From an uncultured Clostridia bacterium (lineage in GTDB: Bacteria > Bacillota > Clostridia > TANB77 > CAG-508), in NCBI GenBank assembly GCA_944387545.1, contig CALXFE010000005.1, positions 12,803-76,802 of the forward strand: a DNA stretch of 64,000 nucleotides, written 5' to 3'. Positions 5,743 through 64,000 of the stretch are shown piece by piece. The first letter of the stretch is position 1. The number at the start of each line of letters is the position of its first letter. The translations under genes and the position numbers were made by a program. Under the pieces are notes generated by a model, which searched no databases, had not been told where the DNA came from, and saw only the letters and a program-made list of their open reading frames with translations.

Positions 5743-5845
5743 TTTTTTACCTCCTCTCCTAAAATATTTCATATAACTATACATAATTATATTATTCGAC
5801 GTATTTTACATAAATCCTTCTCTTTGTTTAAAAAAATGTCCATTG

Positions 5846-5885
5846 GGGACGTGCCAAATTGGTCAAAATTTGACCAAAAGGGACA
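5846..5885 (+). repeat. GGGAC palindromic repeat, type I, copy A
   Basis: GGGACGTGCCAAATTGGTCAAAATTTGACCAAAAGGGACA; 35/40 identical to 18595-18634 (reverse complement). Confidence 0.85.
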
Positions 5886-5957
5886 GACCTACCAAAAAAG
5901 CTATGATAAAGGACATTATATTTCTTAATTTATAAAATAACGAATGTAAATAAATTT

Positions 5958-6041
5958 CTATAAAAAATTCAAACTATCAAATAGGAAAATCTTAACCTTG
6001 CGATTTCATAATTCTATCTGATAGTTTGAATCTTTCTATAG
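5958..6041 (-). other. Long stem-loop (candidate structured RNA or terminator)
   Basis: 18-bp arms at 5967-5984 and 6014-6031; the single mismatch is a G.U pair on the minus strand. Extendable to about 27 bp. Confidence 0.5.
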
Positions 6042-6098
6042 GATAATCTTATCTAAAAAATACTATACCTTTCTTATAATAGCTTTCATCATTCAATT

Positions 6099-6134
6099 CC
6101 TTTTGGACAAAAAATGTCCACTTTGGCACGTCCC
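6099..6134 (-). repeat. GGGAC palindromic repeat, type I, copy B
   Basis: Reverse complement GGGACGTGCCAAAGTGGACATTTTTTGTCCAAAAGG; begins in the TAG stop of the upstream gene. Confidence 0.85.
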
Positions 6135-6799
6135 TAAAGTTCATTCATCAGTGCGATTTTATTATCCATTTTATTAACAATTTTTGCATAATTGACTAAT
6201 TCTTTTGATGTTTTCTTATTAATTTCCTTGTCTGTTTTATATTTGATTTTATGTTCTAAACTAGCCCAAAAATCCATGGCCATTGTTCTTATCTGTATTT
6301 CTACTTTTACATATATGATTTGCTTTGATAACGTAATCGGCACCTTTACAATCATATGATAACTAGAATACCCACTTTCTTTTGGGTGATTTACATAGTC
6401 TTTTTCTTTTTCAATGTAGATACCTGGTATTTCTTTAACTAAAGTTCTGATTTTAAATATATCATCTTTTAATTGGCATACAATTCTAACACCAGCTATA
6501 TCATTGATGTTTTCTATCATTTCTTTATATGTAAGTTTATATCCTTTTTTCCTCATTTTGTTAATAATACTGTCTGGTTCTTTTATCCTTGTATTGATAT
6601 GGTCAATTAAGTCATAGTTATAAAATACTTTAAATTCTTTTTGTAATATATTTATCTTTGTTTCCAGTTCGGTAATGGCCATATCATAAATGGTCATGAT
6701 TTTTTCAAATGTATTTGTCTTTTCTTCTATTTTTTCATCATAGCTTAAAAAGTTTTTCATTTCTACAATTCCTAATTCTTTTCCTTTGTCTTTTTTCAT
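6134..6799 (-). CDS. Small alarmone synthetase (RelA/SpoT synthetase domain only; RelP/RelQ-like GTP pyrophosphokinase)
   Basis: RIKEPDSI, DIAGVRI, KESGYSSYH and VEIQIRTMAMDFWASLEHKIKYK motifs. Confidence 0.92.
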   Translation of the reverse strand: MKKDKGKELGIVEMKNFLSYDEKIEEKTNTFEKIMTIYDMAITELETKINILQKEFKVFYNYDLIDHINTRIKEPDSIINKMRKKGYKLTYKEMIENINDIAGVRIVCQLKDDIFKIRTLVKEIPGIYIEKEKDYVNHPKESGYSSYHMIVKVPITLSKQIIYVKVEIQIRTMAMDFWASLEHKIKYKTDKEINKKTSKELVNYAKIVNKMDNKIALMNEL

Positions 6800-6927
6800 A
6801 TCACATCACAACTCCTCATAGGATATTTATATTTGTTCCTATTTAGTATATGCATATCCTATCTCATAATTGTTTCTAAAAAATATTTATATTGTGTTTT
6901 TTTGATGAACTTGTAAAATAGTAAAAA

Positions 6928-6950
6928 ATAAAAGCCAAATTGGCTTTTAT
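6928..6950 (-). terminator. Intrinsic terminator
   Basis: ATAAAAGCC-AAATT-GGCTTTTAT overlapping the stop of the 409-aa ORF, followed by a T-tract on the minus strand. Confidence 0.7.
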
Positions 6951-8176
6951 CTATCCATATCTCCTTTAATTTCTGCTTTTTTTACTTTAGGAATTTCTTC
7001 CTTTGGAGCAATTTTTGTATTTTTAATCATTTGTATATGTTTCTCTTTTTGCAATCTTTTTTCTAATGAATTATTTATGGCAATTAAACTCTTTTTTCTT
7101 TCCTGTTCGCTCATTTCTCCTAATGTTTTTACTAATCCAGAATTTATACATTCTTGTATAATATCTATGTCTATATCTTTCCCCTCAATAATATTATCCT
7201 TTTTCTTTCCTTTAGACTCATATATAGATTCACTCTCTTCTCCTTTGGCTATTCTTAAAGTTTTTGTCATTTCTTTTTCACTTATATCCGGATTATATTT
7301 TTGTATATATTTTATTAAAACTTTAGATTGCTCCTCGTCTATTTCTCCTATATATTTCATAAATGTACTATCAGGTTGTCCCTCATCTTTTGCTTTTTTA
7401 TGTATTTCTTTTATCATTCTATCAAGAAATCTTTCTTTAACCTCTTTTAAATCAAAATGATTTGCTTCTCCTTCTTTTAATATATCCGCATATTCTTCTT
7501 CTATTTTTTCTGGCATTTTTACTCTTATCATTTCATGAATCGGTACCAATTGTTCCATTGGATATAAATCCAGACCTCCATTTGTCTTATGATACATGAA
7601 AGCAAGATTTCTAGCAACAATTTTATATAATTCTTCGTTGATTTTATCTGTTCTATTAGAAAGACCAATAATTTTTTTTATTCTTTCAACAAATTCGCTT
7701 TGTTGTTCTAGATTTTTCATTGTGCCATATGTCATGTTTAATTCTCTACAAATAGCATCTTCTTTTTTCTCATGATCCTTTAATGTTTTTATAATTGCCA
7801 ATCTATCTTCATCTGATATTTCCGCATTTTCTAAAATCCCCATTGCTGTTTTATCTGATGATTGTTTTGCCAAATCTACCGCTACTTCATCAGAAATTCC
7901 TTCTGAATCAGCTGCTTGTACAGCTGATCCAACTAATATATCTGAAGATATTTCCTCTGCCTTTCTTAATTCTTCTATAATTGCTCTTCTTCTTTCGTTT
8001 GAAGCTTTACTTAATAATATTATAATTTTCTTAATGATTTCTTCATCATTAATTTCTACATTCTCATCTTGAATTGGCTCAATAACTTCTTCTTTAACAA
8101 CTTCTTCTGGTGTCTTTTCTTTTCTCTTTCCAAGAAACTCTTCTTGAAATCTTTTTCCGAAATCTTTTAATCTCAT
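6947..8176 (-). CDS. Hypothetical protein, 409 aa, highly charged and helical
   Basis: Long ORF with RBS AGGAGAG, 11 nt downstream of the adhE stop; no motif recognised. Confidence 0.8.
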   Translation of the reverse strand: MRLKDFGKRFQEEFLGKRKEKTPEEVVKEEVIEPIQDENVEINDEEIIKKIIILLSKASNERRRAIIEELRKAEEISSDILVGSAVQAADSEGISDEVAVDLAKQSSDKTAMGILENAEISDEDRLAIIKTLKDHEKKEDAICRELNMTYGTMKNLEQQSEFVERIKKIIGLSNRTDKINEELYKIVARNLAFMYHKTNGGLDLYPMEQLVPIHEMIRVKMPEKIEEEYADILKEGEANHFDLKEVKERFLDRMIKEIHKKAKDEGQPDSTFMKYIGEIDEEQSKVLIKYIQKYNPDISEKEMTKTLRIAKGEESESIYESKGKKKDNIIEGKDIDIDIIQECINSGLVKTLGEMSEQERKKSLIAINNSLEKRLQKEKHIQMIKNTKIAPKEEIPKVKKAEIKGDMDR

Positions 8177-8187
8177 TTATCTCTCTC

Positions 8188-10800
8188 CTATTTTATTTCT
8201 TTTCCATAATAACTATCTAATAAGATTTGTTTTATTTCTGATACTAGTGGTACTCTTGGGTTAGCCGTTGTGCATTGATCTTCAAACGCTCTATCTGCTA
8301 ACATATCCACTTTTGCTAAAAAGTCTTGTTCATCAATTCCAGCATCTTTAAATGATTTTGGAATATTCATATGTGCATTCATTTCTTTGATTCTTTCAAT
8401 TAAACTACTAATTCCCTCTTCCACTGTTTTTGCTTTCAATCCTGCTTTTTTTGCTATTTCAGAATATTTTTGATCTGCTATAAAATATTCATATTTAGGG
8501 AATGAAACAAATTTAGTTGGTTTTGTAGCATTGTATCTTACAACATATGGTAACAATATGGCATTAATTCTTCCATGTGGTAAATGGAATTCAGCACCAA
8601 TTTTATGAGCTATTGAATGGTTAACACCTAAAAAGGCATTTGTGAAAGCCATACCAGCAATTGTACTTGCATTATGCATTTTTTCACGAGCCAGTTTATT
8701 TGTTCCATCATCATAGGCTTGTTCTAAATATTGGAACACCAATTCTACGGCTTTTTCAGCTAATCCATCCGTATAATCTGATGCCATATTTGAAACATAT
8801 GCTTCTAATGCATGTGTTAAAACATCCATTCCTGTATCTGCTGTAATAGATTTTGGCAGGCTCATAACTAAATCTGGATCTACGATTGCTACATCTGGAG
8901 TTAATTCATAATCCGCCAATGGATATTTTTTGTTTTTCTCTTTATCTGTGATAACGGCAAATGATGTAACTTCTGAACCTGTACCTGATGTTGTTGGAAT
9001 GGCTACCATTTGACATTTTTCTCCTAATTTAGGGAATTTGTATGTACGTTTTCTGATATCCATGAATTTTAGTTTTAATCCTTCTGGATCTGCTTCTGGA
9101 TGCTCATAGAATAACCACATTCCTTTAGCTGCATCGATTGGGCTTCCCCCTCCTAATGCGATAACCACATCTGGCTTGAAGTTTTTCATCGCTTCTACAC
9201 CTTTCATAATGGTATCAAATGATGGATCAGCTTCTACTTCACTGAAAATTTCTGAATGTACATAATGTTGTCTATTTCTTAAATGATATAAGATTTTATC
9301 TACATATCCTAATTTTACCATTCCTTGATCTGTTACAATAAATGCTCTTTCAATATTAGGCATTTTCTCTAAATAAGCAATTGAACCTGCTTCAAAATAT
9401 ATTTTTTCTGGAACTTTAAACCATTGCATATTAACCCTCCTATTTGCAACTCTTTTTATATTAATTAAGTTAACTGATGATACATTGGCTGTTGTAGAAT
9501 TTCCACCAAATGAACCACATCCTAATGTTAATGATGGCATATTGGTATTATATATATCACCAATTGCTCCATGTGTTGATGGAGAGTTTACAATGATTCT
9601 TCCTGCTTTCATCGTTTCTGAAAATCTTAAAATGGTATCTTTATTTTCAGAATGAATAACAGCTGAATGTCCTAATCCACCAAATTCTAGCAATTTTTCT
9701 GCTAGTGGTATTCCTTCATCTTCATCTTTCACAACATAATATGTTAGTACTGGACTTAATTTTTCTTTTGAGAATGGATATTCTTTTCCAACACCTGTTT
9801 CAGCAACAACAAGCACTTTTGTATCTTCTGGAATTTCAAATCCAGCTTCTTTTGCAATTGTATGAGGATATTGTCCTGGTACATGTGATTTTAATTTATA
9901 ATCTCCATTTTCTAATTTTTCAAACATGCTATTGGCTAATTTTTCTTTTTCTTCTTTATTAACAAAATAGCAACCTGCTTTTTTCATTAATTCTTCAAAT
10001 CTTTTTTGAATTTCTTTATCAATAATCACTGCTTGTTCTGATGCACAAATCATACCATTGTCAAATGCTTTTGACATTACTAAATCATTTACAGATGTTT
10101 CTAATTTTGCTGTTTTATCAATATAGCATGGTACATTTCCAGGTCCTACGCCTAATGCTGGTTTTCCACAAGAATACGCAGATTTTACCATGCCTGTCCC
10201 TCCTGTAGCTAAAATTAAGTTAACATCTGGATGGTTCATTAATAATCTTGTCGCTGTAATACTTGGTTTTTCAATCCATAAAATACAATTTTCTGGTGCA
10301 CCTGCTTTTACAGCTGCATCTCTTAAAATTTTCGCTGCTTCTACACTACATTTTTGTGCAGATGGATGAAATCCAAATATAATAACATTTCTCGTTTTTG
10401 CTGATATGATCGATTTAAACATCGTTGTTGATGTTGGGTTGGTAACAGGTGTAACTCCTGCTATAATTCCAATTGGTTCTGCAATTTCTACATAATCATC
10501 TTCTACATTTTCGTCAATAATTCCTACTGTTTTTTCATATTTGATACTATGATATATATATTCTGTTGCAAACATATTCTTTGTAATTTTATCCTCATAA
10601 ATTCCTCTTCCTGTTTCTTCCACTGCCATTTTGGCTAATCTCATATGATTTTCAAGACCTGCCATTGCCATTGCTTTTGTAATGTTATTTACAGTTTCTT
10701 GATCTAATTTTAAATACTCTTGAGATGCTACTTTTGCTTTTTCTACTAAGTCATTAATCATTTGTTCAATTTCTTTTTCTTCGTTTACATTATCACTCAT
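8188..10800 (-). CDS. adhE: Bifunctional acetaldehyde-CoA/alcohol dehydrogenase
   Basis: ALDH half (TPVTNPTST, GVGPGNVP, FDNGMICASEQ), linker LGCGSFGGNS, Fe-ADH half (ALGGGSPID, TTSGTGSEVT, HSIAH, HGRINA). ATG 10800 follows GGAGG. Confidence 0.97.
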   Translation of the reverse strand: MSDNVNEEKEIEQMINDLVEKAKVASQEYLKLDQETVNNITKAMAMAGLENHMRLAKMAVEETGRGIYEDKITKNMFATEYIYHSIKYEKTVGIIDENVEDDYVEIAEPIGIIAGVTPVTNPTSTTMFKSIISAKTRNVIIFGFHPSAQKCSVEAAKILRDAAVKAGAPENCILWIEKPSITATRLLMNHPDVNLILATGGTGMVKSAYSCGKPALGVGPGNVPCYIDKTAKLETSVNDLVMSKAFDNGMICASEQAVIIDKEIQKRFEELMKKAGCYFVNKEEKEKLANSMFEKLENGDYKLKSHVPGQYPHTIAKEAGFEIPEDTKVLVVAETGVGKEYPFSKEKLSPVLTYYVVKDEDEGIPLAEKLLEFGGLGHSAVIHSENKDTILRFSETMKAGRIIVNSPSTHGAIGDIYNTNMPSLTLGCGSFGGNSTTANVSSVNLINIKRVANRRVNMQWFKVPEKIYFEAGSIAYLEKMPNIERAFIVTDQGMVKLGYVDKILYHLRNRQHYVHSEIFSEVEADPSFDTIMKGVEAMKNFKPDVVIALGGGSPIDAAKGMWLFYEHPEADPEGLKLKFMDIRKRTYKFPKLGEKCQMVAIPTTSGTGSEVTSFAVITDKEKNKKYPLADYELTPDVAIVDPDLVMSLPKSITADTGMDVLTHALEAYVSNMASDYTDGLAEKAVELVFQYLEQAYDDGTNKLAREKMHNASTIAGMAFTNAFLGVNHSIAHKIGAEFHLPHGRINAILLPYVVRYNATKPTKFVSFPKYEYFIADQKYSEIAKKAGLKAKTVEEGISSLIERIKEMNAHMNIPKSFKDAGIDEQDFLAKVDMLADRAFEDQCTTANPRVPLVSEIKQILLDSYYGKEIK

Positions 10801-10985
10801 AAAAACCTCCATTCGAGCGACAGTTGCTCTAATAATTTTTATCAAAAGCCTCTAAAATTATGAAAATCATAGAGGTATTTCAATCAAATACATTATATAT
10901 GATTAAAAACAAATGTCAATAATAAAAAGCTTTTATTTTTCTAGTTTTTATCGACAAAAAATACAAGTACATTTGTACTTGTATT

Positions 10986-11993
10986 TTAATCATTATATAA
11001 ATAATCTTGTGGATTCACATGTTCTCCATTTATTCTTATTTCTAAATGTAGATGTGGTCCTGTCGAATTTCCTGTTGAACCAACTGCTGCAATAACATCG
11101 CCAGCTTTTACAGTCTCCCCTTTTTTTACATACATCTTACTGGTATGTGCATACCATGTTTCCACACCATTTCCATGGTCAACCTTTATTAAATTTCCAT
11201 AAGAACCATTATAGCTTGCAGCTGTCACTGTACCATCGGCTATAACTTTTATAGGTGTACCTTGTACTGCAGAAATATCTAATCCAGTATGTGTTGATTT
11301 TCTTAAATTGCTTCTAACGCCATATCTAGATGTGATTTTTCCTTCTATTGGTGCCACTGCTAATTTTATACCATTAACACTTGGTAATGCATTTAATCTT
11401 TCTTCCTCTTCTTTTTGTTGTGCAATTTCTTCTATAGCTGTCTGCACGGTTTCTTGAACATTTACCTTTGCGACTTCTAAATCTGATGTATTTACTTCTT
11501 CTTCATTTTGTGTATATTTTTCTACAATACTTAAATGAATATCTTCACTATTAGTTTCTTCTTTTATTTCATTTACCAATTCTTCTGCTTCTTCACTTGT
11601 ATCTACTTTTTCAATAACCGATTCTTTCACTGCTATTTCATAATATTTATAAGTAACTGTTATATCCTCTTTTAATTCTTCTACTAATGTTTTATCCTCT
11701 GTATCTTCTCCTCTATTTACTAATTTTAACTCATATTCTGGTTCGTTATCTAAACGAATATCTTCAATATTTTTACTTGTACTTTCAGTAATTTCTTGTT
11801 TTAAGGTTTCTTCTAAAGCTTGCTTATTTTCCACATATCCAATTTCCTCACCAGAAATACTTACTTTATACATTGGCTTATATTTTATCAATACAATCGC
11901 GATTATAAAACCAAAAGCTATAATCATGATGTTAAAAAATTTTAGAAACTCTTTTGTATAAAATTTTAGTTTCTTTTTTAAAATAAAATCCAC
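10986..11993 (-). CDS. M23-family murein endopeptidase with N-terminal TM anchor
   Basis: HTGLD, GSYGNLIKVDH, YAH and TGNSTGPHLHLE motifs. Confidence 0.9.
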   Translation of the reverse strand: MDFILKKKLKFYTKEFLKFFNIMIIAFGFIIAIVLIKYKPMYKVSISGEEIGYVENKQALEETLKQEITESTSKNIEDIRLDNEPEYELKLVNRGEDTEDKTLVEELKEDITVTYKYYEIAVKESVIEKVDTSEEAEELVNEIKEETNSEDIHLSIVEKYTQNEEEVNTSDLEVAKVNVQETVQTAIEEIAQQKEEEERLNALPSVNGIKLAVAPIEGKITSRYGVRSNLRKSTHTGLDISAVQGTPIKVIADGTVTAASYNGSYGNLIKVDHGNGVETWYAHTSKMYVKKGETVKAGDVIAAVGSTGNSTGPHLHLEIRINGEHVNPQDYLYND

Positions 11994-12028
11994 TCTCCTT
12001 TTTATGTTTTTTTACGCGACTAGATTAT

Positions 12029-12057
12029 ATTATACTATATATTCTGCCTTTTTTCAA
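12029..12057 (-). promoter_or_regulatory. Sigma-A promoter of the M23 gene
   Basis: TTGAAA-17-TATAAT on the minus strand. Confidence 0.65.
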
Positions 12058-12227
12058 ACTTTGTATACATAATTTGGAATAAAAAAATAAAATTATTTAG
12101 AATTTTTATTTTTTTCTCCTTTCTATTGGTATTTTTTCTCTCAAAATCTCTTTTTTACTTGTTTTTTCTTGATTTTACATATATTTCTAATTACACATCT
12201 CCTATATTAGCTTTTATTTCCAAAATC

Positions 12228-12273
12228 TTGACTTTTCCATTTTATTAGTATATAGTATTCTCGTAGACTATAT
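12228..12273 (+). promoter_or_regulatory. Sigma-A promoter of the XRE gene with an overlapping inverted repeat
   Basis: TTGACT-17-TATAGT; ATATAGT-N10-ACTATAT at 12250-12273. Confidence 0.6.
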
Positions 12274-12326
12274 GGTAAACATATACTTTATATTTATTTT
12301 GCAATAAAAATAGGAAGGTGATATAT

Positions 12327-12653
12327 ATGGCATTAGATTATACAATTATTGGGCAAAGAATTAAACAAGCAAGACTTGCTAAAAACTATACACAAGAGGA
12401 ATTATCTGAAAAGATTGATGTTTCAGTAGCATTTTTAAGTAGAGTTGAGAGAGGCAATTCTCATATCAATTTAAAAAGATTAACACAAATTTGTAATTTA
12501 TTAGATGTTTCAGAAGGCTATATTTTAAGTGGAACTTCAAGTGATTCAGAAAACTATTTATCAAAAGAATTTTCTGAATTATTAAGTAGTTGCCCTGCCC
12601 ATAAACAAAGATTAATTTATAAAATCGCAAAAATTATTGCAGAAGCTGAATAA
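12327..12653 (+). CDS. XRE-family HTH transcriptional regulator
   Basis: IGQRIKQARLAKNYTQEELSE..SRVERG helix-turn-helix pattern; RBS GGAAGGTG. Confidence 0.9.
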   Translation: MALDYTIIGQRIKQARLAKNYTQEELSEKIDVSVAFLSRVERGNSHINLKRLTQICNLLDVSEGYILSGTSSDSENYLSKEFSELLSSCPAHKQRLIYKIAKIIAEAE

Positions 12654-12662
12654 ATCTGTATG

Positions 12663-12692
12663 AAAACCAATATTAAAAAATATTGGTTTTTT
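12663..12692 (+). terminator. Intrinsic terminator
   Basis: 12-bp perfect inverted repeat AAAACCAATATT/AATATTGGTTTT plus a T-tract. Confidence 0.75.
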
Positions 12693-12823
12693 GTTGCATT
12701 TACAACAGCTTTTTTCTGTTTTTATGAATATGATTATTTTGCAGTTAATACTACAGATAAATGACAATATTAAAAAAACAAAAGATAATTTTGTAATTTC
12801 AAGAATTTTATTGTCGTTTTTGA

Positions 12824-12852
12824 TTGATTATATTTTATGAATATGGTATTAT
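12824..12852 (+). promoter_or_regulatory. Extended -10 sigma-A promoter of pflB
   Basis: TTGATT-17-TATTAT with TG at 12844-12845. Confidence 0.55.
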
Positions 12853-12967
12853 ATTATGTGGTCAAAATGATAATAATAATGAAAAGAAAAAATCAGATAA
12901 ATTATCTTTATCATCATGATTAATTGTATTTAATTTTATTTCTTAATTAAGGAGGGGTTTTAATATT

Positions 12968-15205
12968 ATGAAATTTGAACAATGGGATGGATTTGAAAAA
13001 GGTGATTGGCAAAGTGAAATTAATGTAAGAGATTTCATTCAAAAAAATTATACACCTTATGAAGGAGATGCAACATTTTTGGCTGGACCTACAGAAAAAA
13101 CAAAAAAATTATGGGATGAAGTACTAGAACTTTATAAAAAAGAAAAAGCTTCTGAAGGTAGTGTTTTAGATATAGACACAAAAACAATTTCAACCGTTAA
13201 TAGCCATGAGGCTGGATATATTGATAAAGATTTGGAAGAAATTGTTGGTCTTCAAACAGACGCACCTTTAAAAAGAGCCATTATGCCTTTTGGAGGAATC
13301 AGAATTGTAGAAAAATCTTGCGAAGCTTATGGTAGAAAAGTAGATGATGAAGTGGAAGAAATTTTCCATAAATATAGAAAAACACATAATGACGGAGTAT
13401 TTAGTGTATATACACCAGATATCAGAGCTGCTAGAAGTTCACACTTAATTACTGGATTACCTGATGGTTATGGTAGAGGAAGAATTATCGGTGATTACAG
13501 AAGAGTGGCACTTTATGGTGTTGATATTTTAATCGAAGAAAAGAAAAAAGATTTAGAAATATTAGATGTTGACTGTTTAACTGAAGAAATCATTCGTGAA
13601 AGAGAAGAAATCAGTGAGCAAATTAAAGCTTTAAATGATTTAAAATCTATGGCTTTAAAATATGGATATGATATTTCTAAACCTGCAAGTAATAGTAAAG
13701 AAGCTGTTCAATGGCTATATTTTGGATACTTAGGTGCTATAAAGGACCAAAATGGTGCTGCCATGAGTATTGGTAGAACTTCTACTTTCTTGGATATTTA
13801 TTTTGAAAGAGATTTAGAAAATGGAACAATTACAGAAGAAGAAGTTCAAGAAATTATGGACCATTTTGTTATGAAATTAAGATTAGTTCGTTTCTTAAGA
13901 ACACCTGAATATAATGAATTATTCAGTGGTGACCCTGTATGGGTAACAGAGAGTATTGCTGGTATGGGAATTGATGGAAGAACTTTAGTTACCAAAAACT
14001 CTTTTAGAATTCTTCATACTTTGGAAAATTTAGGACCAGCTCCAGAACCAAACTTAACTGTTTTATGGTCTGAATATTTACCAGAAGGCTTTAAGAGATA
14101 TACAACAGATTTATCTATAAAAACATCTTCTATTCAATATGAAAATGATGATTTAATGAGAATTACTTTAGGAGATGACTATGGAATTGCTTGTTGTGTT
14201 TCTCCAATGAAGATTGGTAAACAAATGCAATTCTTTGGTGCAAGAGCAAACTTAGCTAAAACTTTACTTTATGCTATTAATGGTGGTAGAGATGAAATCT
14301 CTGGAAAACAAATCACACCAAAATTTGCTCCAATCACATCTGAATATTTAAACTATGATGAAGTCATGGACAAATTCAAACAAATGATGGATTATGTAGC
14401 AAAAATTTATATTAAAGCTTTAAATGCTATTCATTATATGCATGATAAATATTCTTATGAAGCAATTGAAATGGCTCTTCATGATAAAGATATTTTAAGA
14501 ACAATGGCTTGTGGTATTGCTGGATTATCTGTTGTTGCTGACTCACTTTCTGCTATTAAATATGCAAAAGTAAAAGTTATCAGAGATGAGACAGGACTAG
14601 CTGTTGACTACGAAATCGAAGGAGATTTCCCTAAATTTGGTAATGATGATGATAGAGTTGACAGTATTGCAGTTGATATTGTAAAAACATTTATGAATAA
14701 ATTAAGAAGATATCCAACTTATAGAAATTCTAAACATACATTATCAATTCTTACCATTACATCAAATGTTGTTTATGGTAAAGCTACTGGAAATACACCT
14801 GACGGAAGAAGAATGGGTGCTCCATTTGGACCTGGTGCTAATCCATTACATGGAAGAGATACAAATGGTGCTTTAGCCGTTATGAACTCTATTGCAAAAT
14901 TACCATTTGATTTTGCAGAAGATGGTATTTCATATACTTTCTCAATTACACCTAAAACATTAGGAAAAGATGAAGAAACAAGAGTAACAAACTTAGTCAA
15001 TATGTTAGATGGATATTTTAAACAAACAGGTCATCATATCAATGTAAATGTTTTTGATAGAAGTTTACTAGAAGATGCTATGGAACATCCAGAAAATTAT
15101 CCTCAATTAACTATTAGAGTATCTGGATATGCTGTAAACTTTACAAAATTAACAAGAGAACAACAATTAGATGTTATTAATAGAACTATTCATGAAAGAA
15201 TTTAG
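12968..15205 (+). CDS. pflB: Pyruvate formate-lyase (formate C-acetyltransferase)
   Basis: [12 protein letters not shown], catalytic IACCVS and glycyl-radical [10 protein letters not shown] motifs. Confidence 0.98.
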
Positions 15206-15220
15206 TAATACACTATAAAG

Positions 15221-15254
15221 AAAGGGATTTCAAGATTTTTCTTAAAATCCCTTT
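15221..15254 (+). terminator. Terminator-like hairpin between pflB and pflA
   Basis: AAAGGGATTT...AAATCCCTTT inverted repeat. Confidence 0.65.
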
Positions 15255-15289
15255 TAAAAAGTAATTATGTACTAGAAAGAGGAAGGTTT

Positions 15290-16024
15290 ATGGAAGAAGA
15301 AAAAGATTTAAGATATTATGCAAAAGTACATTCAATAGAAACCTTTGGCGCTGTTGATGGTCCAGGAATTCGTTTTGTATTATTTCTTCAAGGTTGTCAT
15401 TTGCAGTGTAAATATTGTCATAATCGTGACACTTGGGATATGAAAGAAGGAAAATATCAATCTGTGGATGATATTTATAAGATGATTTTAAAGTATAAAA
15501 ATTATATTACTCCAAATGGTGGTGTGACCATTTCAGGTGGAGAACCTTTGTTACAAGTTAAATTTTTAATTGAATTATTTACAAAATTAAAAAAGAAAAA
15601 AATCCATACTTGTATTGATACTTCTGGGATGGTAGCTTTAACAGATGATATTAAACAATTATTAACATTAACAGATTTGGTTCTATTAGATATTAAACAT
15701 ATTGATAGTGAAAAATGTAAAGATTTAGTTGGTTTTGATAATAAGCTAGAATTAGCATTTGCTAAATATTTAAGTGATAACCATATACCAATTTGGATTC
15801 GTCAAGTATTGGTTCCAGGGCTTACAGATGATGAAAAAGATTTACAAAAATTAAAAGAATTTATTTCTACCTTAAATACAGTACAAAAAATAGAAATTCT
15901 ACCATATCACAGCATTGGTAAGTATAAATGGACAAAATTAGGTTTAAAATATGATTTAGAAACTATTAAAGATGCAAGTAACGAGGATGTCAAACGTGCA
16001 AAAGTAATTTTAGGGATAAGCTAA
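15290..16024 (+). CDS. pflA: Pyruvate formate-lyase activating enzyme (radical SAM)
   Basis: DGPGIRF, CHLQCKYCHNRDTW, SGGEPLLQ and LPYH motifs. Confidence 0.97.
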   Translation: MEEEKDLRYYAKVHSIETFGAVDGPGIRFVLFLQGCHLQCKYCHNRDTWDMKEGKYQSVDDIYKMILKYKNYITPNGGVTISGGEPLLQVKFLIELFTKLKKKKIHTCIDTSGMVALTDDIKQLLTLTDLVLLDIKHIDSEKCKDLVGFDNKLELAFAKYLSDNHIPIWIRQVLVPGLTDDEKDLQKLKEFISTLNTVQKIEILPYHSIGKYKWTKLGLKYDLETIKDASNEDVKRAKVILGIS

Positions 16025-16056
16025 AAAGAAAGAGAAATTTTACTCTCTTTCTTTTT
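16023..16056. terminator. Bidirectional terminator
   Basis: AAAAAGAAAGAG/CTCTTTCTTTTT between convergent genes. Confidence 0.75.
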
Positions 16057-16072
16057 ATTTTATAGCAAATTC

Positions 16073-17008
16073 TTACATTCCTAATAATTTTAATTCTACA
16101 TTTTCCATTTTATATTTTCCATCTACTAATTTAAAGTCCACTAATGTATCTTCTAGTGTTTCTTTGTTTTGTCTTAAATCAGTAGTAAAATATAATTTAA
16201 TTTGTGGAATTTCAAGTTTATTTTTTACAATTTCTTTAAATGTTTCTGCCATGTGTTTTTCATCTTCACATATTAATATCAATTGTGGCATTGCAGCAAA
16301 TCCAGAATCTCCTGGAACATAGTTTTCATAGAATTCTTTATATAGTCTCATTCTTTCTACTAATTTCTTTTCCCAATCTTGTTCTCTTCTAATAACCTCA
16401 AAAACAAATTGAATGGATTTTCCATTTTTCGTAAGTTTAACTGCACCACCACTTGCTTTAAAGATTTTTCCTGATACCTTTGCAGTAATTGCTGGTTTTA
16501 CAATGTAACTATCAAATGCTTTTACTTTTCTTAAATAAGCAATTAGTGTTTGATTTCCAGCTAACCTTTTTTTAATCATTGGAACTGGTTTTGTATTATC
16601 AGATGGTTGCCATTTACAATCAATTTCTTTAGAATTTAATAAATATTTTCCCATCTTTTCCAAACAATAAATTCTATAGATTCCTTTTCCTTCATCAGAA
16701 GTAAAGTAATATCTTGTTAAAATTTTAGATTTTACTAATTGATCTAATTTATTATTTAATTTGTCTTGTGATTTTGGGTCAATTCCCTTTATTTCTAACA
16801 TTTGGTACAATTGTCTTGATGTGATAAATTCAAACTCATTTACTAAATCTAAAATTGCAAAATGGATTTCATTAATATGTCCAATATTAATCTTATGTAC
16901 GATTTGATTCATTGACACATACCCATCTTTTCCATCAAAAGTTTTAATTTCACCTTCTCTGATAGCAAATGGAGATACTTGTGCCTTGATTTCATTATCT
17001 TCTACCAT
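16073..17008 (-). CDS. Hypothetical protein resembling the replication-relaxation family (winged helix plus restriction-endonuclease-like fold)
   Basis: ILDLVNEFEFITSRQL..KLDQLVKSKILTRYYF..RIYCL..GKYLL is wHTH-like; ..FVFEVIRR..RLYKEFY..PQLILICED is nuclease-like. ATG 17008 follows AGGGGG. Family assigned by eye. Confidence 0.5.
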   Translation of the reverse strand: MVEDNEIKAQVSPFAIREGEIKTFDGKDGYVSMNQIVHKINIGHINEIHFAILDLVNEFEFITSRQLYQMLEIKGIDPKSQDKLNNKLDQLVKSKILTRYYFTSDEGKGIYRIYCLEKMGKYLLNSKEIDCKWQPSDNTKPVPMIKKRLAGNQTLIAYLRKVKAFDSYIVKPAITAKVSGKIFKASGGAVKLTKNGKSIQFVFEVIRREQDWEKKLVERMRLYKEFYENYVPGDSGFAAMPQLILICEDEKHMAETFKEIVKNKLEIPQIKLYFTTDLRQNKETLEDTLVDFKLVDGKYKMENVELKLLGM

Positions 17009-17075
17009 TTTTCTTTTCCCCCTTAAATTTAATTTAGAATTATCTATATTTTTAAATTGTAAACTAAAAAAATAT

Positions 17076-17873
17076 TTATTTTTCAATCAATAATTTTACT
17101 TTTCTTTTTTCATTATCTATTTTTTTGATATATACATTTACTTTTTGTCCATATTCATATCCTTCAGAATATTCTGCCATACCTACTAAATTAGGCGTTA
17201 GTTCTATAAAGATACCATTTTTGTTTTTCTCAGTTTCGCGAATAATGCCTTGTACTTTCATTCCTGAAGAAAAATTTCTAGCATTTTCTTCCCATGTTCC
17301 TAACGTTTCTTTATATGACAAATTCACTCTTCCTGTATATCTATCTATAGATTTTACCACAACATTTACTTTTTGTCCAATATTTAATCTTTCAAATGGT
17401 GTTTTTATCCTTGCAACCGATAAATCCTCTATATGCGCTAGTCCAACAATTCCTCCTCCAATTTCGATAAAAGCTCCATAAGGTCTGATATTTTTTACTA
17501 TGCCTGTCACATGTTGACCAACTTTCATCTTGTCTTTTATATAATTTAGTGCTTCTTGTTGAACACTTTTTCTAGATAGAAGCACTTTTCTATCATTCTC
17601 TATATCTTGTATTTTAAATTGGACATATTTATGTACTTTTCCCACACATAATTTTTCGTTTGGTAGTTCTCCTTCAATATCTTCTACCTCGCTTCTTGGG
17701 ATGATTCCTTCTATGTTATTTCCTAAATTTATATGTAGATTATATTGTTCATCACAACTTTGTACAATTCCTTGTATTGTTTTATTTTCTTGTTGATATT
17801 CCTGTATCTTTTGTAAATTTAAGTTTTCTATTTCTTCATTCCATCCTTCTGGCACAAATTGAAATGTATTCAT
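17076..17873 (-). CDS. S1 RNA-binding domain protein (short ribosomal protein S1-like, about 3 S1 domains)
   Basis: VTGIVKNIRPYGAFIEIGGGIVGLAHIEDLS..IGQKVNVVVKSID is a canonical S1 repeat; two further degenerate repeats. Confidence 0.88.
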   Translation of the reverse strand: MNTFQFVPEGWNEEIENLNLQKIQEYQQENKTIQGIVQSCDEQYNLHINLGNNIEGIIPRSEVEDIEGELPNEKLCVGKVHKYVQFKIQDIENDRKVLLSRKSVQQEALNYIKDKMKVGQHVTGIVKNIRPYGAFIEIGGGIVGLAHIEDLSVARIKTPFERLNIGQKVNVVVKSIDRYTGRVNLSYKETLGTWEENARNFSSGMKVQGIIRETEKNKNGIFIELTPNLVGMAEYSEGYEYGQKVNVYIKKIDNEKRKVKLLIEK

Positions 17874-18021
17874 TTGTTTTCTCCTTTATCTTACGTGTTT
17901 TAGCATATTATATAGTTTATTTCAAAATTTTTCAACCTTTTTTATTTTTTTATAAAAAGAACTTTTTCTCGTATTTGCATTGTGTTATATGTTTACTAAA
18001 TTTCGTCTTTACTAGAAAATA

Positions 18022-18519
18022 CTAATCAAAATAATTACTAATTTCTTCTAAATCCTCAAAATCTTTCTGTCTGCATATGTCATATACAACGATAGCAACT
18101 GAATTCGATAAATTTAATGATCTTAACTCTGGTCTCATTGGAATTCGAATTGTTTTATCTATGTACTTTTGTAATATATCTTCTGGTAACCCCTTTGTCT
18201 CTTTTCCAAATAATACAAAAATTTCTTGCATATTTTTAAAGTCTGGTTCAGAATAAACGTGTTTTCCTTTAGTTGTCACAAAAAACATGTTATGCTCTTC
18301 TGGTTTATATGTATTTAAGAATTCTTTAAATGATATATGTTCCTCTATATCTAATTTGTCCCAATAATCTAAACCTGCTCTTTTGACAGCTTTTTCTGAA
18401 ATGCTAAAACCTAAAGGATGTACCAAATGTAATTTGGCACCAATGGCAGCACAGGTTCTTGCAATATTTCCTGTATTCTGAGGTATTTCTGGTTCTACTA
18501 ATACAACATGTAATTTCAT
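18022..18519 (-). CDS. trmL: tRNA (cytidine/uridine-34-2'-O)-methyltransferase
   Basis: VLVEPEIPQNTGNIARTC, KRAGLDYW, FGKETKGLP and RSLNLSNSV motifs. Confidence 0.95.
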   Translation of the reverse strand: MKLHVVLVEPEIPQNTGNIARTCAAIGAKLHLVHPLGFSISEKAVKRAGLDYWDKLDIEEHISFKEFLNTYKPEEHNMFFVTTKGKHVYSEPDFKNMQEIFVLFGKETKGLPEDILQKYIDKTIRIPMRPELRSLNLSNSVAIVVYDICRQKDFEDLEEISNYFD

Positions 18520-18545
18520 TTTTCCTCTCCTTTTATGTTCTTTTG

Positions 18546-18634
18546 GGGACAGGCCAAAATGGACATTTTTTATTTTATCTGGGACACGCTAGTGTGTCCC
18601 TTTTGGACATTTTTTGTCCATTTTGGCACGTCCC
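18546..18634. repeat. Composite GGGAC palindromic repeat: partial copy C1 (+), central hairpin, full type I copy C2 (-)
   Basis: C1 18546-18571 GGGACAGGCCAAAATGGACATTTTTT; hairpin GGGACAC-N6-GTGTCCC at 18581-18600; C2 reverse complement of 18595-18634 GGGACGTGCCAAAATGGACAAAAAATGTCCAAAAGGGACA. Confidence 0.85.
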
Positions 18635-19443
18635 TAATGGGTCATTTTTTGTCTTACATATTCATACAATATAATACCTGTTGCAACTGAAGCATTTAAG
18701 CTTTCTGTTTTTCCAAGCATTGGTATTTTTACTTTTTTATCTGCTAGTTTTTGTATTTTTTCTTCCACTCCATTTGCTTCATTTCCAATAACAATGACTT
18801 TTTTCTTGTAATCAATATCATAGATACTATTTTTGGTTTGTAGTGAGGTTACAACAATTTCAAATTTGTGTTTTTTGATTTCTTTTAATGTTTTTTCTAA
18901 ATCTTCACATTCTATGATTTTTACTCGAAATATAGCGCCCATTGTAGACCTTACAACTTTTGGATTATAACTGTCTGCTGTTCCTTTTGATACCAAGATT
19001 TGATTGATGCCTATACTATCTACTGTTCTTAAAATGGTTCCTAAATTTCCTGGGTCTTGAATATCATCTAAAGCTACAATTATGTCTTGATCATAATTAA
19101 TTTCTTCACTATCCATAATTGTTGATTTCATTGTGTTTTTTTCTACAATGGCTAATATTCCCTGTGGATTTGTAACATCTGTTAAACTTTCAAATAATTT
19201 GCTTGTTACATATACACATTCTTGTTTTGCTATCTCATACATTAAATCTTTAGGAATATTGGATGTTTTTTCGCAATCGTCACAAATAACGACTTGTTTA
19301 ATATTTCCTTTTTCATTGATGGCCTCTTCTATAATTTTAATCCCTTCAATAATATATTCGTTATTCAAGTCTCTATATTTTTTATCTTTTAATTTTTTAA
19401 TATGTTTGATAAATTCATTATCTTTACTTGATATTACTTGCAT
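18634..19443 (-). CDS. TrmH/SpoU-family RNA methyltransferase
   Basis: DPGNLGTILRT, KVVRSTMGA, IGNEANG and ESLNASVA motifs. Confidence 0.93.
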   Translation of the reverse strand: MQVISSKDNEFIKHIKKLKDKKYRDLNNEYIIEGIKIIEEAINEKGNIKQVVICDDCEKTSNIPKDLMYEIAKQECVYVTSKLFESLTDVTNPQGILAIVEKNTMKSTIMDSEEINYDQDIIVALDDIQDPGNLGTILRTVDSIGINQILVSKGTADSYNPKVVRSTMGAIFRVKIIECEDLEKTLKEIKKHKFEIVVTSLQTKNSIYDIDYKKKVIVIGNEANGVEEKIQKLADKKVKIPMLGKTESLNASVATGIILYEYVRQKMTH

Positions 19444-44574: not shown

Positions 44575-44608
44575 TGTCCTTTTGGGGACGTTTCCTGATG
44601 GGACATTT
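44575..44608 (+). repeat. GGGAC repeat, type II, copy D
   Basis: TGTCCTTTTGGGGACGTTTCCTGATGGGACATTT; 30/34 identical to the reverse complement of 44722-44755. Confidence 0.85.
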
Positions 44609-44687
44609 CTACGTTACGCTTTTTTAAGTTTATTCATTTTACTATATTTTCTTTATTAGTCTTTTACAAATTGTATTATACAATAAA

Positions 44688-44721: not shown

Positions 44722-44755
44722 AAATGTCCCAAACAGAAACGTCCCCAAAAGGACA
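44722..44755 (-). repeat. GGGAC repeat, type II, copy E
   Basis: Reverse complement TGTCCTTTTGGGGACGTTTCTGTTTGGGACATTT, starting immediately after the ptsI TAA. Confidence 0.85.
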
Positions 44756-49819: not shown

Positions 49820-49882
49820 TTTTCCCTCCTTGTTTCAAATTCTATCATACCTGGTTTTTTTTTACAATATGTTTTTGCCCAA

Positions 49883-49909
49883 TTGGGGACGTTTCTTTTT
49901 GGGACATTT
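49883..49909 (+). repeat. GGGAC repeat, type II, copy F
   Basis: TTGGGGACGTTTCTTTTTGGGACATTT; 26/27 identical to copy E. Confidence 0.8.
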
Positions 49910-49967
49910 TGAAGAATTTTGGAGACAGATTTATTTTCTCTTAAATCTATTTCACATTGCTAAAATA

Positions 49968-63614: not shown

Positions 63615-64000
63615 TTATTTTTTCTTACTTGTAGCTTTTTTAGTTTTTGTCTTTTTCGTATTCTTTGTTGCCTCTTTGTTTTTTGTGATATCTGATTTTT
63701 CAAATTCAAGTTTTTCTTCTGGATTCCATTTCTCTCCCTTTTTAGGTTTATTCCATGAGATATAATCACATGATTTAGGATTATTTTCACAAATATAGTA
63801 ATTTCTTTTTCTTTTTGTTTTTCTTACTTGAACTTTTGCTCCACATTTAGGACATGGTACATCTATGGTTTCAATAATTGGTTTTGCATTTTTACATTCT
63901 GGATATCCTGGACATGCCAAAAACTTTCCATATCTTCCATATTTATATACCATCATTCTTCCGCATTTTTCGCATTTTACATCTGAAACCTCATCCACCA
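63615..64000 (-). CDS. topA: DNA topoisomerase I, C-terminal zinc ribbons and Lys-rich tail (5' part outside the window)
   Basis: CEKCGRMM..GRYGKFLACPGYPEC and CPKCG..YYICENNPKSCDY. Confidence 0.85.
   Translation of the reverse strand, partial: VDEVSDVKCEKCGRMMVYKYGRYGKFLACPGYPECKNAKPIIETIDVPCPKCGAKVQVRKTKRKRNYYICENNPKSCDYISWNKPKKGEKWNPEEKLEFEKSDITKNKEATKNTKKTKTKKATSKKK

Follow-up and report, generated by a model that had tools for sequence, protein, structure and literature searches.

Nearly all of REP/RAYT biology, i.e. that of repetitive extragenic palindromic (REP) sequences and their REP-associated tyrosine transposases (RAYTs), comes from Proteobacteria, for example from the REP/BIME elements of Escherichia coli and the REPINs of Pseudomonas fluorescens (PMC3116915, PMC3337134, PMC5581495; structure 4ER8). 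In these so-called REPtrons, a single-copy Y1 HUH gene with a Y---NP motif, which is the signature of class 2 (TnpA-REP-like) proteins (PMC6006769), lies between inverted copies of a short hairpin repeat. The repeat occurs in tens of intergenic copies, mostly downstream of genes, and its inverted doublets form a co-evolving unit. The enzyme gene is syntenic and inherited with the host, and the repeat diverges together with the enzyme. Here we describe a dispersed repeat, termed class 1, found in a 64,000-nt stretch (the window) of the genome of an uncultured Clostridia bacterium, together with the single RAYT-like gene that accompanies it. Its arrangement is alike in each of these respects, and we consider it highly probable that the class-1 repeats are REP-type elements tied to this single-copy gene, with a REP/RAYT mechanism as the most likely one. 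The family is therefore regarded as a new instance of the REP/REPIN type of mobile DNA already known from bacteria rather than as a new kind of system, and as a clean case outside the Proteobacteria.

A further described group consists of RAYT-like genes with long inverted flanking repeats that contain a GGGG[AT][CG]A[CG] motif (TIRYT/TIRtron), some of which are moderately abundant dispersed repeats (Di Nocera et al. 2013, PMC3733652). Quentin et al. (2018) assigned TIRYT to subclass 2.1 of TnpA-Y1 and found no REP-like secondary structure next to such genes (PMC6006769), and Bertels et al. (2017) listed Clostridia among the hosts of Group 1 RAYTs and counted about 12 occurrences of the flanking 16-mers (PMC5581495). 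The terms 'Firmicutes' and 'Clostridi' are absent from the text of Di Nocera et al. (PMC3733652), Quentin et al. name Clostridia only for the IS200-type subclass 1.1 (PMC6006769), and the cited REP/RAYT papers contain no description of a Firmicute repeat family of this type. A search of the searchable literature for the core 10-mer GGGACGTGCC of the class-1 repeat likewise gave no relevant match, just unrelated primers and similar sequences.

The repeat family and its cognate RAYT-like gene

The genome under study (G000) is 1.63 Mb in size and consists of 54 contigs (C), of which positions C5:12803-76802 make up the window. It was compared with 40 related genomes (n = 41 in all, labelled G0xx; L0xx denotes loci within the relatives). 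When the 13-mer GGGACGTGCCAAA was searched with at most one mismatch, 47 core matches were obtained in G000 (24 forward and 23 reverse) versus 0 for the reversed sequence used as control, while an nhmmer profile (E < 1e-3) gave approximately 50 copies.

A Pfam Y1_Tnp search of G000 returned two matches. One of them (C9:26013-26333, 34.9 bits) lies inside a pair of class-1 cores, C9:25642(+)/26874(-), and belongs to the RAYT-like gene (Table 1), the units around which span C9:25630-25693 (+) and C9:26829-26884 (-). The other match is an IS200-type TnpA at C5:6014-6370 (-), about 6.4 kb before the window start, which scores 137 bits and has a near-identical-scoring copy at G010:C23. No class-1 unit was found near the latter gene, as nhmmer detected nothing on C5 below 18,637.

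The RAYT-like protein matched Y1_Tnp with 32.8 bits against a cut-off of 23. It contains the HUH motif NHAHIL and the tyrosine motif RYIFYNPVRAKMV (Y120-IFY-N124-P125), and residues H60, H62, Y120, N124 and P125 are invariant in 14 paralogs and orthologs of the genus. Among the NCBIfam families, the model for REP-associated tyrosine transposases scored best (63.6 bits, E 1.7e-17), compared with 18.6 bits for IS200. A profile of RAYT-like sequences identified E. coli TnpA-REP (4er8_A) as the best solved structure (E 1.1e-4), and the same structure ranked top in a Foldseek search with the AlphaFold2 model of the protein (pLDDT 81.6; E 9e-6, TMt 0.74), ahead of the transposases of IS608 and ISDra2. 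The model shows a helical stretch at residues ~150-250, where only some paralogs gave matches, all weak, to HTH_23, HTH_60 and HTH_24; this C-terminal domain is probably a helix-turn-helix (HTH) domain.

Repeat and gene showed the same distribution among the 41 genomes. The repeat was abundant only in G000 (47), G010 (48) and G006 (31), with 0-2 near-matches in the others, and an enzyme ortholog with at least 63% identity was present only in these three genomes, every other match being at most 47% identical. Thus, repeat and cognate gene occurred together in 3/3 carrier genomes and in 0/38 others. In all three carriers the RAYT-like gene is syntenic, located between ileS and an ABC-transporter gene, and these neighbours are much more conserved than the RAYT-like gene itself. 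No recognisable remnant of the enzyme gene was found in the syntenic ileS-ABC spacer of G022, so that gain and loss of the gene are both possible.

A wider survey of one genome per species, using the single RAYT-like protein of G000 as query, revealed orthologs with 63-85% identity in 17 species of uncultured Clostridia/Eubacteriales metagenome-assembled genomes. Class-1 units adjoin all 17 orthologs, on both sides in 15 cases and on the sole sequenced side in 2 truncated loci, and no units adjoin the more distant RAYT-like genes at 9 loci. Other RAYT-like genes of the genus were also inspected: 9 of the 10 tested possess their own 30-65-nt inverted repeat flanks (L039, L042, L041, L032, L036, L031, L037, L038 and L034). 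Six of these nine flank sets carry a GGGGACG core, preceded in most by TT(A/G).

Structure and covariation of the class-1 unit

A position count over the 47 units showed conservation from -10 to +45, corresponding to a unit of approximately 55 nt that comprises a semi-conserved leader, the 5' box GGGACGTGYCAAA, a 6-7 bp hairpin with a 5-nt loop and the 3' box AAAGGGACASACC. The 10-nt leader reads T-R-R-a-C-c-a-T-T-R, in which T at -2 and R at -1 are invariant (47/47). Two variable bases separate the 5' box GGGACGTGCCAAA from a stem of 6 bp with a loop of 5 nt (TGGACA-W5-TGTCCA), after which comes the 3' box AAAGGGACAGACCT, running to GACCT. The core GGGACGTGCC is near-palindromic (GGSACGTSCC), 8 of its 10 positions matching its own reverse complement. 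The initial annotation had drawn the repeat as a ~40-bp palindrome; the unit is longer than this, and the leader and the 3' box to GACCT have to be added.

The inner stem had also been described as carrying a compensatory change, with TGGTCA/TGACCA in one window copy (5861-5877) and TGGACA/TGTCCA in the others, and significant covariation of the inner hairpin bears this out. For the units of G000 and G010, 89.4% of the cells of the inner helix were paired, changes on both sides were observed in 5 of the 6 pairs (20 cells), and 0 of 500 shuffles reached the observed values. For the enzyme-flanking units across species, 89.1% of the cells were paired and 48 cells had changed on both sides, giving a covariation score of 0.624 versus 0.233 for shuffles, with all slid controls far lower. 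The stem takes the forms TGGACA/TGTCCA, TCGTTCA/TGAACGA, TCGTTCC/GGAACGA and CGTTTC/GAAACG across species while both boxes stay fixed, and a few units of the CGTTCA type are also kept in G000.

The loop is TTTTT in 18 units, AAAAA in 10, AAAAT in 9 and ATTTT in 4, so the flip noticed in the window is real, T-type loops being about as frequent as A-type loops. Most doublets have the same loop type on both arms. Because loop type is independent of gene sense (17 T versus 15 A among gene-abutting units), the flip seems to reflect the behaviour of a perfect palindrome at the DNA level and not to be an RNA signal. An IS608-like guide pairing of the leader with positions 14-21 was considered as well and rejected, as the mutual information was weak and unconvincing after ~200 tests.

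Doublets, copy boundaries and position relative to genes

The units of G000 form 13 inward-facing pairs, measuring 45 to 1233 bp end to end, and 21 single units; tandem pairs were not observed (0). Core identity between the arms of a pair was 0.869, higher than the 0.751 between random units (permutation p = 0.0004). Leader similarity was 0.54 within pairs vs 0.49 between pairs (p = 0.13), and three pairs have identical leaders. Doublet interiors range from 0 to ~450 bp. At C17:4062-4106, two left halves with one common hairpin make up a perfect 45-bp palindrome between convergent genes, and five composites of ~310 bp have a common interior. A further pair, at C7:45163-45697, encloses a whole ymxH/ylmC-like gene (PRC-barrel type, 78 aa) together with its ribosome-binding site (RBS).

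Two 317-bp copies (C2:19124-19440 and C10:187-503) share 96.5% identity over 316 bp. The similarity breaks off precisely at the outer GGGAC on one side and GTCCC on the other, the flanking sequences being unrelated. No target-site duplication was found at these copies, since the flanks are not direct repeats. Hence, the copied unit spans G1 to G1' and generates no target duplication.

All 47 units are intergenic or overlap just the last codons of a gene, and 32 of them abut the 3' end of a same-strand open reading frame (ORF), starting at or within 10 nt of the stop codon. It should be pointed out that the ORF calls are crude and that the stop-codon pattern is independent of exact gene starts. 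Seventeen units share a base with a TAG stop, its G being at the same time the first G of GGGAC; in 7 of these 17 TAG-terminated proteins the last residue is His, from the CAT of the leader. A stop codon at -10 to -8 was seen in 11 units. Eleven further units form the distal arms of doublets, oriented towards the start and RBS of the gene that follows. The units also matter for annotation: they extend over stop codons and, in places, code for the C-terminal residues of proteins.

Presence and absence at orthologous sites

Orthologous spacers were compared between species, as had been suggested along with the original description of the repeat, and they do differ. The spacer between the alarmone synthetase gene and dnaG holds a 289-bp doublet in G000, as opposed to only a hairpin-plus-T-run terminator in G010 (DnaG 90% identical); the doublet is also absent from the orthologous spacers of G019, G006 and G022. 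It thus replaces the terminator present in G010, of which the T-run is retained: the T-run after the doublet is inherited from the older terminator. Conversely, some sites are filled only in G010 (L011 vs G000 C3, L018 vs C30 and L021 vs C22), and at other common sites G000 and G010 hold different forms.

The rlmB-trmL spacer is a bare 20 nt in G019 and contains a decayed remnant, TAGGACTTGCCAAAAT, in G010. In G006 (L073, G006:C32, ~150-200), the unit lies three codons further upstream and the RlmB-like ORF reads into it (…RQLGTGQNVSK*), stopping at a TGA inside the hairpin, so that the unit encodes the last 9 residues (LGTGQNVSK). The G006 unit is an independent insertion.

At C2:53403-53670, the terminal residues NLNH are common to the products of two unrelated genes that converge there, and the two arms of a single palindromic stem (TTGAACCATT/AATGGTTCAA) code for them. 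Between these arms lies a 12-nt loop with one core in G010 (L016, G010:C7, ~1495-1531) and a full 242-bp doublet in G000. The leader may represent the stem of an older terminator split by insertion, which would fit this convergent-gene locus (C2:53416) and L016 of G010, but not the dnaG locus.

Proposed mechanism and alternative explanations

That the repeats might be a REP/REPIN-like family mobilised in trans by an HUH (RAYT-like) enzyme had already been proposed in the initial annotation, and the genome-wide motif search, the Y1 HUH gene between two inverted units (best match 4ER8), the co-occurrence of gene and repeat, the differences between orthologous spacers and the covariation of the inner hairpin all support this proposal. 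We infer catalysis, mobilisation, the cut site, single-strand intermediates and any RNA role as follows. The RAYT-like enzyme would bind the hairpin and boxes on single-stranded DNA. It would cut and rejoin the DNA at the boundary of the unit, the probable site being 5' of GGGAC, directly behind the invariant TTR. Units or doublets would then be excised and inserted in trans, with the enzyme gene staying fixed between ileS and the ABC-transporter gene. Insertions would presumably survive only in the tiny spacers of a compact genome, which would explain why the units directly follow stop codons, in many cases providing the stop itself or the final codons of the gene. In such positions, they would probably also act as 3' RNA hairpins.

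Several points weigh against this explanation. Many sites are common to G000 and G010, so turnover must be slow. The cognate gene of G010 (L027, G010:C54, 1598-2119) is without its first ~72 codons, and its flanking units are kept; as G010 has 48 copies despite this shortened gene, copies persist without an intact enzyme, and some of the differences between species could be losses rather than gains. The NCBIfam score of 63.6 is under the curated cut-off of 80 for the RayT equivalog (NF047646). The canonical 5' GT[AG]G tag of REP sequences is absent, the hairpin foot being CCAAAWY with no GTAG/GTGG in the consensus. The 10-nt leader may be either an element end or a target preference, and its pattern is a constant component of a second repeat class as well. 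Finally, cleavage, excision and transposition by the RAYT-like enzyme are steps that we infer.

If the units were mainly host-serving 3'-end RNA or DNA hairpins, i.e. terminators, mRNA stabilisers or a translation-termination context kept by selection, the RAYT link would be incidental. The frequent position at same-strand stops (32/47), the replacement of a G010-type terminator by the dnaG-locus doublet with retention of the T-run, and the strong folding of the doublets speak for such a role. However, just 3 of the 25 species in the genus possess the family, the distribution of which coincides exactly with that of one transposase ortholog; orthologous genes do without units, and loop orientation is independent of gene sense. 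A simple scan for intrinsic terminators gave no match at the dnaG-locus copies; at the second window locus its single match was weak, at chance level and on the strand opposite to the genes. Rfam gave no match at the gathering threshold, just chance miRNA-hairpin matches (E 0.07-0.9). We therefore regard this explanation as improbable for the family as a whole, although an acquired secondary RNA role of the units is quite possible. It is still less probable that the units serve a DNA-binding protein, for instance one reading GGSACGTSCC, as static binding sites or cruciforms, with copies that arose otherwise. This would suit the 8/10 self-complementary core and boxes that are invariant across species while the stem varies, but the units are located at gene 3' ends, not at promoters, whole doublets are copied with their cargo, presence and absence differ between close species, and the transposase link would be left unexplained. 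A protein-binding cruciform may nevertheless be a side property of the units.

Two other mobile-element origins were weighed against RAYT-driven mobilisation. The inward pairs with ~45-nt inverted ends, interiors of 0 to ~450 bp and near-identical copies of the 317-bp form resemble miniature inverted-repeat transposable elements (MITEs), that is, deletion derivatives of a classical DDE-type insertion sequence (IS) moved via terminal inverted repeats. Yet the 96.5%-identical copies show no target-site duplication, their flanks being unrelated and inverted rather than direct; 21 units are single; and the one gene that units bracket is of the Y1 HUH type, single-copy and syntenic, rather than a DDE gene. 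No parent IS with the same ends as the doublets was seen. The MITE option of the initial annotation, in its DDE-transposase sense, is thus not supported and regarded as very improbable, on a par with the binding-site explanation. Only marginally better placed, and still very unlikely, is the idea that the units are palindrome-associated IS200/IS605 derivatives moved by the IS200-type TnpA instead of the RAYT-like enzyme. That TnpA is a strong match in both G000 and G010 and would use the same chemistry; against it, no unit lies near its gene, the repeat distribution follows the RAYT ortholog, and the symmetric ends of the units lack the distinction between a left and a right end that IS200/IS605 elements have.

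Relation to known systems

Compared with the REPtrons of Proteobacteria, the class-1 system differs in having two 13-nt conserved boxes around a short hairpin of free sequence, an extra C-terminal domain (~100 aa) in the enzyme, a low-GC Clostridia host and, in some doublets, ~190 bp of cargo. It resembles TIRYT, subclass 2.1 and RAYT Group 1 in its long RAYT-like enzyme, the C-terminal extension of which may be of the same HTH type, given the weak HTH matches in some paralogs. The long inverted flanks contain GGGGACGT and GGGACAGA, which may correspond to the TIRYT motif GGGG[AT][CG]A[CG]: GGGGACGT fits it at 6/8 positions, and the 3' box GGGACAGA fits if one G is dropped. Also as in TIRYT, the flanking repeats belong to moderately abundant dispersed families, often dimers. 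Unlike subclass 2.1 as described, however, the flanking repeat has a hairpin under clear compensatory evolution. By its described features, the family is best filed within REP/RAYT as TIRYT-like. What stands out in it are a clear, covarying hairpin, several sister classes, doublets with cargo and a tight register with stop codons.

The IS200/IS605 elements and their palindrome-associated derivatives (IS608, ISDra2) have the same catalytic fold (Foldseek ranks 2-30). A hairpin plus a short 5' motif as the likely recognition unit, the lack of target duplication and an insertion that appears to follow a short motif, here TTR, are common to both. The present system differs by its Y---NP instead of Y---Q, its symmetric ends and its single-copy immobile enzyme gene, and no tnpB partner was noted adjoining the RAYT-like gene.

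More tentatively, HTH-bearing RAYT-like enzymes (TIRYT/subclass 2.1/Group 1) might run true REP/REPIN populations in this Clostridia lineage, a proposal that we find conceivable yet somewhat doubtful. If true, ~10 enzyme paralogs would exist genus-wide, each with a cognate repeat on a common TTR|GGGGACG boundary, doublets would carry ~190 bp of cargo, and insertions would land exactly at stop codons, rewriting the stop and last codons. The system offers a small genome with one enzyme gene and ~50 units, along with several sister species that have compensated hairpins and fixed boxes; the enzyme probably reads the fixed boxes as sequence and the stem as shape. Moreover, the ~10 enzyme-repeat pairs of the genus with a GGGGACG core could serve as a natural panel for DNA choice by Y1 HUH enzymes.

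Copies and doublets in the window

The window has a low G+C content (~28%), and the majority of its genes are on the minus strand. All four copies of the initial annotation are present. Three of them contain the 13-mer GGGACGTGCCAAA without mismatch, at 5846-5858 (+), 6122-6134 (-) and 18622-18634 (-), and the fourth, at 18546-18558 (+), deviates from it at 2 positions. With up to 2 mismatches, 5 matches were found, the chance expectation being 0.34; the remaining one, at 63909, appears to be fortuitous. Both loci are doublets, in agreement with the inward-facing pairs noted before, and are listed in Table 1.

At the first locus, G1 of the minus-strand unit (position 6134) is the G of the TAG stop of a RelA_SpoT-type alarmone synthetase gene (6134-6799, -). 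This copy, previously delimited as 6099-6134, is real, although it has no proper 3' box, the corresponding sequence being degenerate (AAAGGAATTG). At the second locus, G1 of the complete unit (position 18634) is likewise the G of a TAG stop, that of a SpoU/RlmB-like methyltransferase gene (18634-19443, -), and the partial unit stops 17 nt short of where the next gene (18022-18519, -) starts, adjoining its RBS. As single-stranded DNA, the 89-bp doublet folds into one long hairpin (-24.3 kcal/mol, z = -7.65).

Table 1. Coordinates of the class-1 features. Positions refer to the window unless a contig is given; scores are from nhmmer.
Feature	Position	Strand	Score (bits)	Details
Class-1 REP-like unit, distal arm of doublet	5836..5890	+	64.5	faces dnaG start; leader ATGTCCATTG, GGGACGTGCCAAAT, hairpin TGGTCA-AAATT-TGACCA (5861-5877), AAAGGGACAGACCT
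Class-1 unit, proximal arm	6094..6144	-	49.5	leader, GGGACGTGCCAAAG, hairpin TGGACA-TTTTT-TGTCCA
Inverted doublet, REPIN-like composite	5846..6134			289 bp; fills alarmone synthetase-dnaG spacer
Interior 'cargo' of 289-bp doublet	5891..6093			diverged copy of ~190-bp long-palindrome sequence; central stem 5958-6041
Complete class-1 unit	18587..18647	-	55.9	
Partial class-1 unit, decayed distal arm	18537..18571	+	23.0	GGGACAGGCCAAAATGGACA + leader
89-bp doublet	18546..18634			outer stem GGGACGTGCCAAAATGGACA / TGTCCATTTTGGCCTGTCCC; inner stem GGGACAC/GTGTCCC (18581-18600)
RAYT-like gene (Y1 HUH)	G000:C9:25971-26723			250 aa; outside window

Other repeats in the genome

A second REP-like class, TGTCCAATTG|GGGACGTTTCTGTTTGGGACATTTTT, is present in 34 copies in G000, mostly directly after stop codons, with window copies at 44575-44611 (+), 44722-44755 (-) and 49876-49912 (+). 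This class has no cognate RAYT-like gene in G000, where it looks orphaned, and matching flanks were found at RAYT-like genes of G010:C90 and G006:C21.

The ~190-bp long-palindrome sequence, with the core AAGGTATCTAATAGG...CCTATTAGATACCTT, occurs inside doublets of both class 1 and class 2 and is either a common cargo or an independent third repeat family. Besides the window site (5891-6093), it was located at C2:19184-19383, C10:246-446, C8:23013-23195 and C22:21576-21769, and further at C2:96570-96757, C21:9167-9335, C22:188-338, C27:7709-7891 and C8:19061-19226. A shorter form stands alone at C8:12342-12427.

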